A DNA stretch of 29,124 nucleotides, from the NCBI GenBank assembly GCA_947503395.1, contig CANNDP010000001.1, positions 1 to 29,124 of the forward strand. Direction: 5' to 3'. Below are positions 1 through 13,822 of this stretch, in pieces (within the stretch, counting starts at the first letter, position 1; every line of letters begins with the position of its first letter). The stretch is from Actinomycetota bacterium. GTDB lineage: Bacteria > Actinomycetota > Actinomycetes > Nanopelagicales > Nanopelagicaceae. A model generated the notes under the pieces. It had not been told where the DNA came from, made no database searches, and saw only the letters and a program-made list of their open reading frames with translations. The position numbers and the translations under genes were made by a program.

Positions 1-377
1 ACCTTTGACCACCAGACCTCATGTCCATGGCTTAGAGCAACAATTTTCTTGACATTACCTACTCTTAAAAACCTGGCAGAGATTGCAAGTGGAGCTGCAG
101 CTCCAAACCAAATCTTCTCTACTTTGCTCTGCTTTATAACTCTTCTAACTGCCCTTATTACCCGAGGGGTAGGCAGCAATATCTTGGATGAGTCGCGAAT
201 TACTTTAACGCCAAAGTTTTCTAGCCATTTCTGATCAAAGCTCTCACTGCCAATTTGCTTTGAGGTATAGACAATAACTTCGCCTTTTGGCATTCTTTCA
301 AGTAGGCCAATAATGAAAGTTTCAATTCCTCCTGCGCGCGGGCCAAAATCATTGGTCAGAAGCAATATTGAAGGCAT
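1..377 (-). CDS. Glycosyltransferase family 4, PimB'-like mannosyltransferase (5' part; runs off the left edge)
   Basis: Not in the ORF track; translated by hand from ATG 377: MPSILLLTNDFGPRAGGIETFIIGLLERMPKGEVIVYTS...WFGAAAPLAISARFLR...IVALSHGHEVWWSKV. The TNDFxPRxGGIE and THGHE-like motifs are typical of actinobacterial PimB' (Rv2188c-like), as is the position downstream of an NlpC/P60 gene. Confidence 0.85.
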   Translation of the reverse strand, partial: MPSILLLTNDFGPRAGGIETFIIGLLERMPKGEVIVYTSKQIGSESFDQKWLENFGVKVIRDSSKILLPTPRVIRAVRRVIKQSKVEKIWFGAAAPLAISARFLRVGNVKKIVALSHGHEVWWSK

Positions 378-383
378 TATTAA

Positions 384-389
384 ATTCTA
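384..389 (-). promoter_or_regulatory. -10 hexamer TAGAAT, 6 nt before ATG 377 (leaderless-type)
   Basis: Minus strand reads TAGAAT-TTAATA-ATG; no SD sequence. Confidence 0.6.
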
Positions 390-399
390 CTGATCAACT

Positions 400-1416
400 C
401 TAGAGTCGACGCGCTCCTACATACTTTTTCCGACCAAAGTAGTTTCCAAACTCTGCAATCTGCACTTTAGCTCCAGGTCTTGGCGCATGGACCATCTTGT
501 TCTTGCCAATATAGATTCCAACGTGAGATATGGGAGTGCCGAAAAAGACTAGGTCGCCTGCTTGGAGATTATTTCTTGAAATCGATCTTCCATAACCAAA
601 TTGCGCCCGCGAGGAGTGAGGCAATTTAACCCCAGATTGTTGGAAGGAGCGCATAGTCAGCCCTGAGCAATCCCAACGAATTGGCCCCGCTGCTCCCCAA
701 ACATAATTATCACCAATTTGTTTAACGGCATACCGAAGGGCAGTTCCAGCTCTTCCTGATACGGCATTTGCAAGCTTTGCCTGCTCTTGCGAGTATCTCT
801 GTCGCTCCGCTGCATCCATCGCCTGAAGCTTGAGAATTTTCTCTCGATCTGCTTTCTCTAGTTTTGATAATAACTTTTCGGCTTGAGCAAGCTTGGCTTC
901 AACTTGAGCTGCTTGAGCGCGATAGCGCGCCTCTGCTGCTTGAACCAATCTAACTTTGTCGCTGACTGTTAGTGATGTGGCATCGAGGCGCTGTTTGGCG
1001 GTGGCATACTTTCGAAGCTCTAGCGATTGCTTCCTAGTCACATCCTCTAGCGAGCCAGCAGCTGAGAGATAAAGGGATGGGTCTGAGGAGAAGAGCAGCT
1101 CTAAACCTTCACCGAGTCCTGTTGATTTGTATCGAGCCACTGCAATTGCTGACAGTGATTTCTCAATCGATTCAACGCTAGCTTTTTGAAGATCTGCTTC
1201 TTGGCGCACCGACTCCAATTGGGATTTAAGTCTGGCTAATTGAATCTTGGCAGCTTGGGCATTCTCTCCGGCTTCAGCGGCATCTTCTTGAAGGCGTTCA
1301 ACCTCTGCCCGGACTGCAACTAAGTCAGCGCTCGGGGCAGCGCTAGATGTTGGAAGAAGGGTGATGGCTAGAACTAGAGCCAAGAAAGGCGTTAGCCACC
1401 GAATAGCCAATTTCAT
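400..1416 (-). CDS. Secreted NlpC/P60 (C40) peptidoglycan endopeptidase with coiled-coil N-domain (RipC/PcsB-like)
   Basis: Signal-peptide-like N-terminus, long Ala/Gln/Glu/Lys coiled coil, and a C-terminal YVWGAAGP..DCSGL..GDLVFF..HVGIY..H catalytic domain. Confidence 0.93.
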   Translation of the reverse strand: MKLAIRWLTPFLALVLAITLLPTSSAAPSADLVAVRAEVERLQEDAAEAGENAQAAKIQLARLKSQLESVRQEADLQKASVESIEKSLSAIAVARYKSTGLGEGLELLFSSDPSLYLSAAGSLEDVTRKQSLELRKYATAKQRLDATSLTVSDKVRLVQAAEARYRAQAAQVEAKLAQAEKLLSKLEKADREKILKLQAMDAAERQRYSQEQAKLANAVSGRAGTALRYAVKQIGDNYVWGAAGPIRWDCSGLTMRSFQQSGVKLPHSSRAQFGYGRSISRNNLQAGDLVFFGTPISHVGIYIGKNKMVHAPRPGAKVQIAEFGNYFGRKKYVGARRL

Positions 1417-1422
1417 CGCGTT

Positions 1423-1428
1423 AGGCTA
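1423..1428 (-). promoter_or_regulatory. -10 hexamer TAGCCT, 6 nt before ATG 1416 (leaderless-type)
   Basis: Minus strand reads TAGCCT-AACGCG-ATG. Confidence 0.55.
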
Positions 1429-1448
1429 ACTGCGAAAGTAAGGCCAGC

Positions 1449-1682
1449 TCAACCTGAAAGGGCTTGATTTGCCTGTGAATTATTACTTTCTCCCGCGCTC
1501 TGAGCGTAGCGAAGAGGAGGAATCATTCCCCTCGATGAGAGAAGATCAATTACTCGCGCCTCTTCAAGGCCAAGCTCTGAGGGCTCATGGCTCTGATTAC
1601 TCGGGGCAGAAATTAGGACGGAAACTACGCAATCTTTACATGCGATATCTCGCATGATGCAACTATCGCAATCAATAATCAT
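1449..1682 (-). CDS. Small conserved actinobacterial protein, 77 aa, CxxC-x6-CxxC (putative metal-binding)
   Basis: MIIDCDSCIMRDIACKDCVVSVLISAP...EEARVIDLLSSRGMIPPLRY. Start moved from 1718 (GTG) to ATG 1682 because of the promoter box 7 nt upstream and the recalled family N-terminus (IDCDxC..CxDCVVxVLL). Confidence 0.75.
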   Translation of the reverse strand: MIIDCDSCIMRDIACKDCVVSVLISAPSNQSHEPSELGLEEARVIDLLSSRGMIPPLRYAQSAGESNNSQANQALSG

Positions 1683-1689
1683 GAAGGCA

Positions 1690-1711
1690 ACGATAGAGAG
1701 CGGCACTGACA
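1690..1711 (-). promoter_or_regulatory. RecA-NDp / PafBC-type promoter: TGTCAGTG-N8-TATCGT
   Basis: Minus strand reads TGTCAGTG (1711-1704) CCGCTCTC TATCGT (1695-1690) TGCCTTC ATG. Sequence and spacing match the mycobacterial RecA-NDp consensus tTGTCRgtg-N8-TAnnnT. Confidence 0.7.
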
Positions 1712-1726
1712 TCATCACTTGGGCGG

Positions 1727-1732
1727 TAGCGT
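1727..1732 (+). promoter_or_regulatory. -10 hexamer TAGCGT, 7 nt before ATG 1740 (leaderless-type)
   Basis: TAGCGT-GCTACTT-ATG. Confidence 0.5.
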
Positions 1733-1739
1733 GCTACTT

Positions 1740-2261
1740 ATGAAGCAAGGCCCAGAGGTCAAAACGATGGCCAATATTCTCCTGGCAAGGAATCTGGCCA
1801 CCAGCCTTGGGGGTAGCTCAAGGGAGTTAAGTCCCAAAAGTGATCGAATTAGATTCCACCAGATTCGCACGCTAGCCAAAGCGATATTAATTGGCGGCCA
1901 GAGTTATAGAAATGAGCCCTACTCTAAATTGAGCCTTCCGCTCTATATCTCATCTCGCACGCTTAACGAAGGAGCCGCTGGTAATAAATTCATCTTTAAT
2001 CAAGATCCAGCCTGGCTAATTAATCGCGCTTTATTAGAGCAGGGCTGCCCAGTATTGATAGAGGGTGGGGTGAATTTCATCTCGAATTTAATTGCCGAGA
2101 GCCTAATTGATCTTCTCTACATCACCAGAGTTAATCAAGATGGTGATGGCCACTTCTTTGATGAGAGCCAATTACTTAAGAATTACCAGAGACAATCCAT
2201 TGAGGACATAGATGGCGCTAGCTTTGAAAGTTGGGGAGTTAAGTTAAAAAGCAGCGATTAA
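1740..2261 (+). CDS. RibD C-terminal / dihydrofolate reductase-fold protein
   Basis: GGSSRELSPKSDRIRFHQIR, AILIGGQSYRNE, VLIEGG..F..LIAESLIDLLYIT. Start placed at ATG 1740 (ORF track gives TTG 1719; ATG 1767 is also possible). Confidence 0.75.
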   Translation: MKQGPEVKTMANILLARNLATSLGGSSRELSPKSDRIRFHQIRTLAKAILIGGQSYRNEPYSKLSLPLYISSRTLNEGAAGNKFIFNQDPAWLINRALLEQGCPVLIEGGVNFISNLIAESLIDLLYITRVNQDGDGHFFDESQLLKNYQRQSIEDIDGASFESWGVKLKSSD

Positions 2262-9271: not shown

Positions 9272-11144
9272 CATTTAAAGAAGCCCAGCCAACTAATTGA
9301 CGGCTAATGCTCTGTGAAGTGATTCCAATATCTTGCAGAATTTCGGCGCGCTTTGAGTGTTGAATAAATTCCAAAGGCACTCCAATTGAATGAATGGGCA
9401 GATCTAGACCATTTTCACGAAATAGCTCAGATAAAGTGCTAGCAATTCCACCGTGTTTAATTCCATCTTCTAGCACCACTACTCGTTTAAATCTTGGAGC
9501 CATGGCAAGAAGTGAATCTGCAGGAAGAGGCTTAACCCAGAGTGGATCGATGACAGTTACTCCAACACCTTCACGAAACGCTTGAGCTGCCGCATCAATT
9601 GCAAGAGGTGCCATAGCGCCAATGCTCACAAGGAGAATATCTGAGCTCTCACCGCGATAGAGAACATCTAGCCCGCCACGTCTTTCAAATGCTGGCAAAT
9701 CTTTTCCAATTGCTCCCTTTGGAAAGCGAATAATTGAAGGGGCATCAGAGATTGCAACAGCCTCTGCTAGCGATTCTTTTAATCTTGCGCCATCACGGGG
9801 CGCTGCAACAAATGCATTAGGAATTATTCCAGTAAGTGCTAGATCCCAGATTCCGTGATGCGATGGCCCATCATCGCCAGTTATTCCTGCTCTATCTAAA
9901 ACAAAAGTGACTCCAGCTTTATGTAATCCCACATCTAATAGCAATTGATCAAATGCGCGGTTCAAAAATGTTGAATAGACCGCAACTACTGGATGAAGGC
10001 CGGTGTAGGCCATACCAGCAGCTGAGGTGACAGCGTGCTGTTCAGCGATCCCCACATCAAAAGTTCGCTCTGGAAATTCAGCTTGGAATCTATCAAGCCC
10101 CGTTGGGCCAAGCATGGCAGCAGTAATTGCCACAACATCTTTTCGCTCTCGCCCTATCTCAACTAGCGCCTCAGAGAATACTTTCGTCCAGGTGGCGCCA
10201 TTATTTGATAGCGGCTCCCCTGTTTCAGGATCAACGACCCCAACTGCATGAAACTTCTCTGCCTCATCATTGAGCGCTGGAGCATGTCCCCGTCCCTTTT
10301 CAGTGATGGCATGGACTAATACCGGCCCTGAGAATTTCTTTGCCTGAAGGAGAGCACGCTCAAGTGCCGGAATATCATGACCATCAACTGGTCCCAAATA
10401 CTTAAGTCCTAAATCTTCGAACATTCCTTGCGGAGCAACAATATCCTTAATACCTTTTTTCATTCCGTGGAGAGTTTCATAGATTGGATTTCCGACAACC
10501 GGAGTCTTTTCTAATACTTGCTTTCCCCAATCAAGGAATTTTTCATAGCCCTTTGTAGCGCGAAGCGTTGAGAGATAGGTAGCTACTCCACCAATAGTTG
10601 GTGAGTAAGAGCGTTCATTGTCGTTAACCACGATCACAAGTTTTAGATCATCTGAGGCAGCAATATTATTTAGCGCCTCCCAAGACATTCCGCCTGTTAG
10701 AGCTCCATCTCCGACTACTGCTACAACGGTTCTATCGCTCTGATTCTGCAGAGCAAAGCCACGAGCTATTCCATCAGCCCATGAGAGAGCGGTTGAAGCA
10801 TGTGAGTTCTCTATAACATCATGTTCACTCTCTGCCCTACTTGGATATCCTGCAAGTCCTCCGCGCTGACGAAGCTTTTCAAACCCTGCAGCTCTTCCAG
10901 TTAGTATCTTATGGACATAACTTTGATGGCCTGTGTCATAAACCATTACATCTTGGGGAGATTCAAATACGCGATGAAGCGCAATACTCAACTCCACGAT
11001 TCCAAGATTTGGCCCTAGATGTCCGCCTGACTTTGAAACTTTCTCGATTAAAAAAGCTCTAATCTCTGCCGCCAACTCTGTTAGCTCATCTTGGCTAAAG
11101 CGCGCCAAGTCGCCAGGAGATTTAATCCGGCTAAGGTGTTTCAT
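9210..11144 (-). CDS. dxs: 1-deoxy-D-xylulose-5-phosphate synthase
   Basis: GGHLGPNLG, DTGHQSYVHK, GDGALTGGMSWEALN, YLGPVDGHD, DVGIAEQHA, DRAGITGDDGPSHHG. Confidence 0.97.
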   Translation of the reverse strand: MKHLSRIKSPGDLARFSQDELTELAAEIRAFLIEKVSKSGGHLGPNLGIVELSIALHRVFESPQDVMVYDTGHQSYVHKILTGRAAGFEKLRQRGGLAGYPSRAESEHDVIENSHASTALSWADGIARGFALQNQSDRTVVAVVGDGALTGGMSWEALNNIAASDDLKLVIVVNDNERSYSPTIGGVATYLSTLRATKGYEKFLDWGKQVLEKTPVVGNPIYETLHGMKKGIKDIVAPQGMFEDLGLKYLGPVDGHDIPALERALLQAKKFSGPVLVHAITEKGRGHAPALNDEAEKFHAVGVVDPETGEPLSNNGATWTKVFSEALVEIGRERKDVVAITAAMLGPTGLDRFQAEFPERTFDVGIAEQHAVTSAAGMAYTGLHPVVAVYSTFLNRAFDQLLLDVGLHKAGVTFVLDRAGITGDDGPSHHGIWDLALTGIIPNAFVAAPRDGARLKESLAEAVAISDAPSIIRFPKGAIGKDLPAFERRGGLDVLYRGESSDILLVSIGAMAPLAIDAAAQAFREGVGVTVIDPLWVKPLPADSLLAMAPRFKRVVVLEDGIKHGGIASTLSELFRENGLDLPIHSIGVPLEFIQHSKRAEILQDIGITSQSISRQLVGWASLNVKQEGMQLAADENADRKPLH

Positions 11145-11164: not shown

Positions 11165-13822
11165 CTAAGAAAGTAGAGAGCGCAAGACGTACTGCATGAT
11201 TCCACCGTGGCGATAGTAATCAGCCTCACCTGGGGTATCGATACGTACCTTTGCCTCAAAGCTCTTATCTCCAGCCGTCACCTTAACAATGCTTGGAATG
11301 CGACCTTCGTTTAACGCAGTAACACCAGATATTGAAAATACTTCTTCGCCGCTAAGCCCTAATGAATTGGCATCTTGACCATCGAGAAATTGCAGAGGAA
11401 GAACTCCCATTCCAATCAAATTAGAGCGGTGAATTCTTTCAAATGATTCAGCGATGACTGCCTTTACTCCAAGAAGCGCGGTTCCTTTTGCAGCCCAATC
11501 TCTAGAAGATCCGGAGCCATATTCTTTTCCTGCCAGAATTACTAAAGCAATGTTGGCATCTTGGTATGCCATTGATGCATCATAGATAGTGCTCTGCTTA
11601 CCACCATCAATAAAGTTTCTAGTAAAGCCACCTTCAACTCCGTCAAGCAAAAGATTCTTCAAGCGAATGTTTGCAAACGTTCCTCTAATCATGACTTCAT
11701 GATTGCCACGGCGCGAACCATAGGAATTAAAGTCAGATTTTTCTACCCCATTTTCTGCTAGATATTTTCCAGCTGGAGAATCAACCTTAATCGAACCTGC
11801 TGGTGATATGTGATCAGTAGTTACTGAATCACCAAGCTTTGCCAAAACTCTTGCACCTGAAATATCAGTAACTGGAAGAGGATTTCTGGGCATAGATTCA
11901 AAGTAAGGAGGTTTTCTGACATAGGTAGATTTTGGATCCCAGTCAAAAGTCTTTCCTTCAGGGGTTGCAAGTGAGGTCCAGTTTTGATCTCCAGCAAATA
12001 CACTTGAATAATCTTTCTTAAACATATCTGAGGTAACCACTGAATCAATTACGCCTTGGATCTCTTGCATACTTGGCCAGATGTCTTTCAGGAACACATC
12101 ATTTCCCGAGCTATCTTGGCCTAGTGGATCTTTATCAAAGTCATGATCCATACTTCCAGCAATTGAATAGGCTACAACTAGCGGAGGCGATGCTAAGTAG
12201 TTCATTTTCACATCAGGGCTAATTCGACCTTCAAAGTTTCTATTTCCAGAAAGCACCGCTGCAACCGAGAGATCATTGTCATTTACTGCTTTGCTAACCT
12301 CTAGAGGCAATGGACCAGAGTTTCCAATGCAGGTAACGCATCCATAGCCAACTAGGTTAAATCCGAGTTTTTCTAGATACGGAGTTAGCCCTGATTTTTC
12401 ATAGTAGTTAGTGACTACCTTTGAACCTGGCGCAAGTGTGGTCTTAACCCAAGGCTTACTCATCAAACCTTTTTCTACAGCTTTCTTTGCTAGTAGTCCT
12501 GCCCCAATCATCACAGAAGGATTTGAGGTATTAGTGCAAGAAGTGATTGAAGCTATTACCACTGAGCCATTGGTAATAGATCCTTTTCTTGAATTTACTT
12601 CAATTGCTATTGGATTAGTAGCAGTATTGCTAGAAAGATAAGAAGGGAGAACTTTGGCAAAGGAACTCTTGGCATCACTTAGGGAGACTCGATCTTGTGG
12701 TCTCTTGGGTCCTGCTATTGATGGAACGACACTTGAAAGATCTAGCTCTAATCGCTCTGAGTATCTTGGCTCTGCAGATGGGTCATGCCATAGTCCTTGA
12801 GCCTTGGCATATTTCTCCACTAGCTCTAATTGTTCTCCGCTTCTTCCGGTTAACTCTAGATACTTAATAGTCTCCTGGTCTATTGGGAAAATTGCCACAG
12901 TTGAGCCGTATTCAGGTGACATATTTCCAATTGTGGCGCGATTAGCCATCGGAAGTGCGCTCACTCCAGGGCCATAAAATTCAACAAACTTGCCGACTAC
13001 GCCATGCTTTCTCAGCATCTCAGTAATTGTTAAAACTAAATCAGTTGCAGTTGTTCCAACTGGTAACGCTCCACTTAACTTAAACCCTAGAACCCTAGGA
13101 ATAAGCATAGAAACTGGCTGACCAAGAAGGGCTGCCTCTGCTTCAATGCCGCCCACTCCCCAACCAAGAACTCCAAGGCCATTGACCATAGTGGTGTGTG
13201 AATCAGTTCCAACCACAGTATCTGGATATGCCCGCTGCACACCGTTTACTGCTCTGACCATTACTACTCTTGCGAGGTATTCAATGTTTACTTGATGAAC
13301 AATGCCAGTGCCGGGCGGAACTACTTTAAATTCATCAAAGGCGCTCTGGCCCCAACGAAGGAAGCGATATCGCTCTTGATTTCTCTCATATTCAATATCA
13401 ACATTTTCTTTGAAAGAGCTTGCCGTTCCATATTTGTCAGCAATAACTGAGTGATCGATAACTAGTTCAGCAGGGGCTAAGGGATTAACACGCGATGGAT
13501 CTCCACCAAGTTCTGCAATTGCCTCTCTCATAGTGGCAAGATCGACAACACAAGGAACTCCAGTGAAATCTTGCATAATCACACGCGCCGGTGTGAATTG
13601 AATTTCAGTGTCGGGAATGGATTCAGGATTCCAGGAAGCAAGAGCTTCAATCTGCTTGGCTGTGATATTTGCGCCATCTTCAGTGCGAAGGAGATTTTCT
13701 AGTAATACTTTTAAGGAAAAGGGAAGAGAATTTGCTTGAGATAGTTTGGTGATATCAAATATTTCATAACTCTTGCCTGAGACTTCAAGCGAGCTCTTTG
13801 CGCCGAAGGAGTTCTTGCTCAT
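11165..13822 (-). CDS. acnA: Aconitate hydratase A
   Basis: [19 protein letters not shown]-like [60 protein letters not shown]. Confidence 0.97.

Follow-up and report, generated by a model that had tools for sequence, protein, structure and literature searches.

A PafBC-type promoter before a conserved gene for a four-cysteine protein at a ripC-pimB'-like locus of the Nanopelagicaceae

The promoter and the small gene

The stretch of DNA analysed here (the window, 29,124 nucleotides (nt) of contig CANNDP010000001.1, assembly GCA_947503395.1) stems from a freshwater Actinomycetota bacterium of the Nanopelagicaceae with a streamlined genome, whose assembly of 0.96 Mb is 74% complete and has a GC content of 44%. 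At positions 1-1711 its minus strand carries a promoter of the type recognized by the DNA-damage regulator PafBC, followed by a small gene for a 77 amino acid (aa) protein with four conserved cysteines, a gene for a secreted NlpC/P60 hydrolase and the 5′ part of a GT4 glycosyltransferase gene.

Read on the minus strand, positions 1711-1680 consist of TGTCAGTG-N8-TATCGT-N7-ATG. The -26 element TGTCAGTG (1704-1711), which matches the published consensus and is invariant in the orthologue loci described below, is followed after an N8 spacer (1703-1696) by the -10 hexamer TATCGT (1690-1695), and this after N7 (1689-1683) by the ATG (1682-1680) of the small gene (1449-1682, TGA stop at 1451-1449). 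A distance of 7 nt between -10 and ATG is compatible with a leaderless mRNA, and the gene is probably leaderless with a predicted transcription start site at about 1682. The in-vivo consensus of PafBC promoters is tGTCgg(N10)tA(N3)T; PafB touches the GTC triplet at about -26, while SigA reads an ordinary -10 without a -35 (PMC8635444). All these features were found at the site, namely the invariant GTC, the spacing to a TANNNT -10 and the lack of a canonical -35: 17 nt before the -10 one finds the hexamer GTGATG, which shares 3 of its 6 letters with TTGACA, and a consensus scan revealed no sigma-70 site at the -35 of the small-gene promoter. By chance 0.03 occurrences of the strict pattern are expected in the window (1 match in 3 of 100 shuffles), and in the whole 0.96-Mb assembly it occurs only twice, both strands included.

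The regulator itself is encoded in this genome. The genes pafB and pafC are arranged in tandem and overlap on contig C24 (4399-6259); PafB contains a WYL (E 1.3e-17) and a WCX domain, PafC its specific helix-turn-helix domain (HTH_PafC, E 4.4e-29) and a WYL domain, and the gene order pafB, pafC, tatC, helicase is that of mycobacteria. The second perfect site, TGTCGGTG-N8-TATCTT at C19:12079-12058, is located before a gene for a LysM membrane protein (C19:11598-12386, locus L097), which is YneA/ChiZ-like (YneA model, 50.5 bits) and divergent from lexA. A LexA box, GAACAGACGTTC, lies immediately past the -10 of this site. In M. tuberculosis PafBC drives rv2719c and not lexA (PMC8151990), and by analogy the ChiZ/YneA-like gene with its perfect PafBC site beside lexA mirrors the Rv2719c arrangement. 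A further LexA-like half-match can be found closer to lexA in the same locus. An initial annotation of this DNA had proposed the motif with its spacing, the 77-aa reading frame and a PafBC/RecA-NDp-type promoter. The motif, spacing and reading frame are present at 1711-1680 (minus strand), and the interpretation as a PafBC promoter is well supported in silico by the presence of pafB-pafC, by the second site next to lexA and by the conservation in orthologues.

Using a relaxed pattern (GTC-N12-TANNNT plus leaderless spacing) two further candidate sites were identified which the strict search had missed. One, TGTCATTA-N8-TATCTT-N6-ATG, precedes a gene for a Rv2191-type DEDD exonuclease (C37:5608-7386, L100; match to NF005907, 779 bits), the other, AGTCACTC-N8-TAGACT-N7-ATG, precedes pcrA (C20, about position 10198, L101; match to TIGR01073, 984 bits). 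A match of the form TGTCAGAAAACCTCCTTACTTT-N6-ATG at about 11920 of the window, inside an aconitase-like open reading frame (ORF) of 885 aa (11165-13822, minus strand), was rejected as a probable chance match. In relatives, PafBC-type sites also occur before a gene for a TM0106-type RecB-like nuclease. Furthermore, a DUF6504 gene in Nanopelagicaceae relatives (L092:229-586 and L096) is preceded by a PafBC-type motif with a perfect LexA box, TCGAACATCTGTTCGA, right behind it, which suggests a dual control as in mycobacterial SOS/PafBC genes.

Conservation of the promoter and of the gene family

To analyse the conservation of the promoter, the 150 nt upstream of the start codon were scanned in the 80 most similar orthologue loci from species-representative genomes. 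In 73 of these 80 loci TGTCRG-N10-TANNNT is present, compared to a background of 0.005 per 150 nt in the remaining sequence of these loci. Information is confined to the motif positions, with spacer and flanks being variable. The lineages with the motif include Nanopelagicales, Demequinaceae, Georgenia, Jiangella, Actinophytocola, Kineosporia, Streptosporangiaceae and Frankia-like organisms. The leaderless arrangement, with the -10 ending 6-7 nt before the start codon, is found in 40 of the 73 loci, and 33 high-GC loci have a leader of 17-86 nt with a ribosome-binding site. The initial annotation had expected the motif upstream of orthologues, and besides these 73 loci it is found in all six Mycobacterium genomes examined.

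In these six Mycobacterium genomes the small gene is located between a Rv2191-type exonuclease gene and a ripC-like gene, with the GT4 gene further on, and all six possess two back-to-back PafBC motifs, one per direction, of which the second faces the Rv2191-type gene. The motif table for M. tuberculosis gives only the Rv2191-facing site (PMC8151990 supplement). The ripC-hypothetical-pimB neighbourhood has been described in a review in which the small ORF is absent (PMC12067865), and in the literature on MSMEG_4256-4259 and Rv2190c/Rv2191 we found no description of it either. In Mycolicibacterium and Mycobacterium species every named orthologue bears the annotation "hypothetical protein". In total 175 of 201 sampled Mycobacteriales genomes contain the family, and among them the PPE-rich genomes, i.e. 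those of mycobacteria, all contain the small gene where the assemblies allow its detection.

A sample of 301 genomes from the whole phylum yielded the family in 85 and the PafC helix-turn-helix domain in 211 genomes, and 84 of the 85 genomes carrying the family also encode PafC. A Streptomyces-like family (genomes of 7-10 Mb) has PafC in 9/9 but the small gene in 0/9 genomes. The Mycobacteriales and the phylum-wide tallies include unpublished genomes (G011, G152, G171, G208, G255, G295 and G327), whose sequences do not enter this work. The family is widely conserved, has not been described before and probably belongs to a regulon already known, and judged from the sequence comparisons the gene is a putatively ancient and widely retained part of the PafBC regulon in Actinomycetes. 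A divergent subfamily from other actinobacterial lineages (loci L102-L117) has the motif C-x2-C-x-M-Q-H-T-x2-C-x-D-C ("MQHT" variant); several of its members are still encoded near a GT4 or a DnaQ-GIY-YIG gene.

The downstream genes and the four-cysteine protein

Downstream of the small gene follows the gene for the RipC-like NlpC/P60 hydrolase of 338 aa (400-1416, minus strand). In the protein a signal peptide, predicted from the sequence, is followed by a long coiled coil, and the C-terminus is formed by an NlpC/P60 domain (PF00877, E 5.8e-27, residues 235-337). Its best NCBIfam match is wall_hydro_RipC (residues 14-322), with 108.8 bits below the cut-off of 425 bits. The genes ftsE-ftsX are present on contig C61. 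The GT4 gene (3-377, minus strand) is truncated by the contig end, and its match to Glyco_transf_4 (E 3.2e-4) is below the cut-off; a full-length orthologue also matches generic GT4 models only. By synteny with the mycobacterial ripC-pimB locus (PMC12067865) the enzyme is presumably PimB'-like. The remainder of the gene should be located on contig C86, which overlaps the start of the window by 123 nt (residues 85-125 are identical).

As stated by the initial annotation, the small gene and the NlpC/P60 gene are separated by 32 base pairs (bp) and the latter and the GT4 gene by 22 bp. No terminator-like hairpin was found on the minus strand in either gap. The link of the small gene to NlpC/P60 and GT4 and the order of the three genes are conserved in the orthologue loci as well as in the mycobacterial ones. 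However, the NlpC/P60-GT4 pair has a sigma-A-like promoter of its own (1423-1452, minus strand), consisting of TTGAGC (1452-1447), N18, TAGCCT (1428-1423) and N6 before the ATG at 1416; its -35 overlaps the TGA stop of the small gene. Of 32 Nanopelagicales-type loci 28 show the corresponding pattern TTGAR-N16-20-TANCCT-N5-8-start, and when a shifted start codon is allowed it is found in 30 of 31 relatives; in loci without NlpC/P60 TAGCCT-N6-GTG is found directly before GT4. Neither NlpC/P60 nor GT4 is preceded by a Shine-Dalgarno sequence. Because the NlpC/P60 stop overlaps the GT4 start in many relatives, these two genes form an operon. A TAGAAT-N6-ATG before GT4 (384-389) is restricted to the closest relatives, the ORFs overlapping or abutting elsewhere. 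On the other side of the PafBC motif lies a divergent RibD_C-like ORF (pyrimidine reductase family, 1719-2261, plus strand), whose first TTG is 8 nt beyond the motif; as the RNA contigs set in only at about 1791-1801, the ORF probably starts downstream of this TTG.

The 77-aa protein itself contains an N-terminal cysteine cluster, C-x2-C-x6-C-x2-C, from residue 5. In 108 diverse sequences C5, C8, C15, C18 and L48 are invariant, and R11, V19, G52 and P55-P56-L57-R58 nearly so, the latter forming a G-x-x-P-P-L-R motif. The family is large, with 1394 representative clusters recovered by a profile search (E <= 0.001). Pfam and NCBIfam give no match to the protein, the profile search against PDB sequences returned only a chance match (E 1.8) and thus no related solved structure, and the ESM Atlas contains unnamed clusters only. 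Relatives in the AlphaFold DB are uncharacterised, two of them bearing an automatic "4Fe-4S ferredoxin-type domain" label. Neither a signal peptide nor a membrane-spanning hydrophobic segment was detected in the protein. It is therefore probably a conserved cytoplasmic protein whose cysteine cluster, judged from its primary sequence, is metal-binding or redox-active, and the helix-PPLR element is probably partner-binding. A predicted complex of the 77-aa protein, NlpC/P60 and GT4 scored 0.00, which weighs neither for nor against binding.

Transcription units, alternatives and significance

Assemblies of freshwater metatranscriptomes contain RNA contigs covering the locus, one from 1199 to 1677 and another from 1199 to 1647, and in two runs a depth of about 25 falls to 0-7 above approximately position 1654. 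Contig ends and depth drop are compatible with a transcript that begins at the ATG (1682) or close to it, as predicted by the initial annotation, and speak against uniform carry-over of DNA in those runs. Since contigs from three runs span the 32-bp gap, part of the transcripts probably extend from the small gene into NlpC/P60.

We therefore propose, with a probability of about three in four, that the minus strand of 1-1711 contains two nested transcription units, a PafBC-dependent small gene and a separately promoted NlpC/P60-GT4 unit. The hybrid promoter (-26 TGTCAGTG, -10 TATCGT, no -35) would start a leaderless mRNA at the small-gene ATG, and after DNA damage PafBC, activated by single-stranded DNA, would by analogy with mycobacteria recruit RNA polymerase-SigA to it. 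A second promoter, located in the last codons of the small gene and the 32-bp gap, would start a leaderless NlpC/P60-GT4 mRNA without damage. Because no terminator lies between the units, damage-induced transcripts probably extend into NlpC/P60-GT4. The product of the small gene may act as a cytoplasmic metal-binding regulator of cell separation, division or a neighbouring envelope pathway; this function, like the induction by damage, is what we infer.

Alternatively, the three genes could form a single damage-driven operon in which the PafBC promoter mainly raises the amounts of the RipC-like hydrolase and PimB' after damage. Such an operon agrees with both gaps lacking a terminator, with the RNA contigs from three runs crossing the 32-bp gap and with the conserved gene order, but we regard it as rather unlikely. 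NlpC/P60 has its own conserved -35, -10 and leaderless ATG, in high-GC lineages the gap measures 75-480 nt, and the small gene is retained where NlpC/P60 has been lost. In addition, an internal AUG on read-through RNA may be translated poorly, as NlpC/P60 has no Shine-Dalgarno sequence. The own promoter means that NlpC/P60-GT4 can be expressed independently of damage and that read-through is not needed. Of the proposal in the initial annotation that the small-gene transcript reads through into cell-wall genes, the read-through itself remains, given the missing terminator and the RNA contigs across the gap, while the dependence of these genes on it does not.

Several results weigh against the two-unit reading with its PafBC-dependent small gene, or limit its range. 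The initial annotation had expected the motif to be shared by recA, uvr and ruv genes, but uvrA, uvrB and ruvA of the same genome lack the strict motif, and recA starts at a contig end, its promoter lying off the contig in this 74% complete assembly. The relaxed leaderless scan of the genome yielded 5 matches compared to 2-5 in controls and thus no excess, so that among the relaxed sites only the identity of the genes (exonuclease and pcrA) is suggestive; two of the five matches look spurious, one of them being that in the aconitase-like ORF. In three low-GC Nanopelagicaceae genomes the loose motif shows no enrichment over its reversed form (16 vs 16, 9 vs 15 and 10 vs 8), whereas it is strongly enriched genome-wide in high-GC genomes carrying the small gene (80 vs 6, 119 vs 13 and 25 vs 0; the remaining one of the four tested gave 8 vs 2). 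The distant "MQHT" homologues mostly lack both a PafBC motif within 160 nt and an NlpC/P60 neighbour; hence the promoter link is typical of a large part of the Actinomycetes and not of the whole family. The RNA contigs are unstranded and thereby supportive evidence with an approximate 5′ end. Finally, AlphaFold2 with the 108 sequences predicted the fold poorly, with a predicted local distance difference test (pLDDT) score of 65 and only the helix 39-50 confident, and at this pLDDT fold matches were consulted for names only.

Regarding the function of the small protein, we tentatively prefer a regulator that is induced by damage and acts on division or on the hydrolysis of the septal wall, although even this role appears doubtful. 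Adjacency to ripC and pimB' has been kept more faithfully than adjacency to the Rv2191-type exonuclease. About as likely as the regulator of division is an accessory role in repair, for instance as a zinc-finger partner of the Rv2191-type DnaQ-GIY-YIG exonuclease, the vicinity of ripC then being an inherited accident. In mycobacteria and many high-GC lineages the small gene and the exonuclease gene form a divergent pair which shares the intergenic region with its two back-to-back PafBC motifs, and this speaks for such a partnership. In the genome studied here, however, the exonuclease gene is found on a different contig (C37) and the small gene has remained beside NlpC/P60-GT4, and in several lineages another gene lies between the two, so that we consider this specific partnership unlikely.

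Cysteine-responsive leader peptides are known in mycobacteria as very short ORFs with consecutive Cys codons upstream of cysteine-related genes. The small gene is also leaderless, small, cysteine-containing and upstream of an operon, and it could in principle be such a cis-acting attenuator not coding for a functional protein. This is highly improbable: the family members are 60-110 aa long (77 aa here) and conserved along their length, including the non-cysteine residues R11, V19, L48, G52 and PPLR in the 108 sequences, their cysteines are not consecutive, and the downstream operon has its own promoter. A chance resemblance of an ordinary housekeeping promoter, independent of PafBC, would be conceivable from the modest information content of the motif, with one chance match expected per low-GC genome, but it can hardly be reconciled with the conservation in 73 of 80 loci amid variable flanks, the recurrence of the motif at known PafBC targets and a gene distribution nested within that of PafC.

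Comparison with known systems helps to place the promoter, the locus and the protein. Like the RecA-NDp/PafBC promoters of recA (P1), Rv2719c and Rv2191, the site has TGTCRGTG with the GTC, 8 nt to TANNNT and no -35 in a genome encoding pafB-pafC, and this genome repeats the motif before the ChiZ-like gene and, in a relaxed version, before the Rv2191-type gene. It differs from them by its streamlined 44% GC genome with just two perfect sites, by the leaderless arrangement and by a product belonging to no described family. The locus corresponds in gene order to the mycobacterial ripC (Rv2190c)-Rv2189c-pimB' (Rv2188c) locus with its divergent Rv2191, where in six Mycobacterium genomes the small ORF separates the Rv2191-type gene from ripC; here, however, the Rv2191-type gene is on contig C37 with the RibD_C-like gene being divergent instead, and NlpC/P60 and GT4 are not separated by an Rv2189c-like gene.

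With the division inhibitors ChiZ (Rv2719c), YneA, SulA, SidA and DidA the protein shares its small size, a damage promoter and the link to septal wall functions. Unlike the ChiZ/YneA/SulA type it has neither LysM nor a transmembrane segment nor similarity to SulA and is predicted to be cytoplasmic; Pfam, NCBIfam and hydrophobicity analysis revealed no membrane anchor, LysM or divisome-binding domain. WhiB-like and other small four-cysteine metal-binding proteins are likewise small, typical of actinobacteria and equipped with four invariant cysteines. The protein is distinguished from WhiB-like proteins by C-x2-C-x6-C-x2-C starting at residue 5 and by lacking both a match to Pfam Whib and the G[VI]WGG turn, and the search against solved structures gave no match.

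The PafBC-type promoter has been kept from the acI bacteria of freshwater to Mycobacterium and represents one of only two perfect sites in this genome, which suggests a core function. On these grounds of conservation the four-cysteine protein is likely a core, unstudied part of the PafBC damage response, and the sites described here sketch for the first time what a minimal PafBC regulon of the Nanopelagicaceae may look like. M. smegmatis without ChiZ still blocks division after DNA damage (PMC13712929), and since ChiZ is dispensable for this block another factor is to be expected. The small protein might be this missing PafBC-dependent checkpoint effector, a cytoplasmic metal-binding protein restraining septation or RipC/FtsEX-driven cell separation after damage, but in this specific form we regard the idea as unlikely. 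The position before ripC together with the ChiZ finding nevertheless makes the gene a concrete candidate which is testable in a tractable model. If true, the role as checkpoint effector would explain how M. smegmatis stops division after damage without ChiZ.

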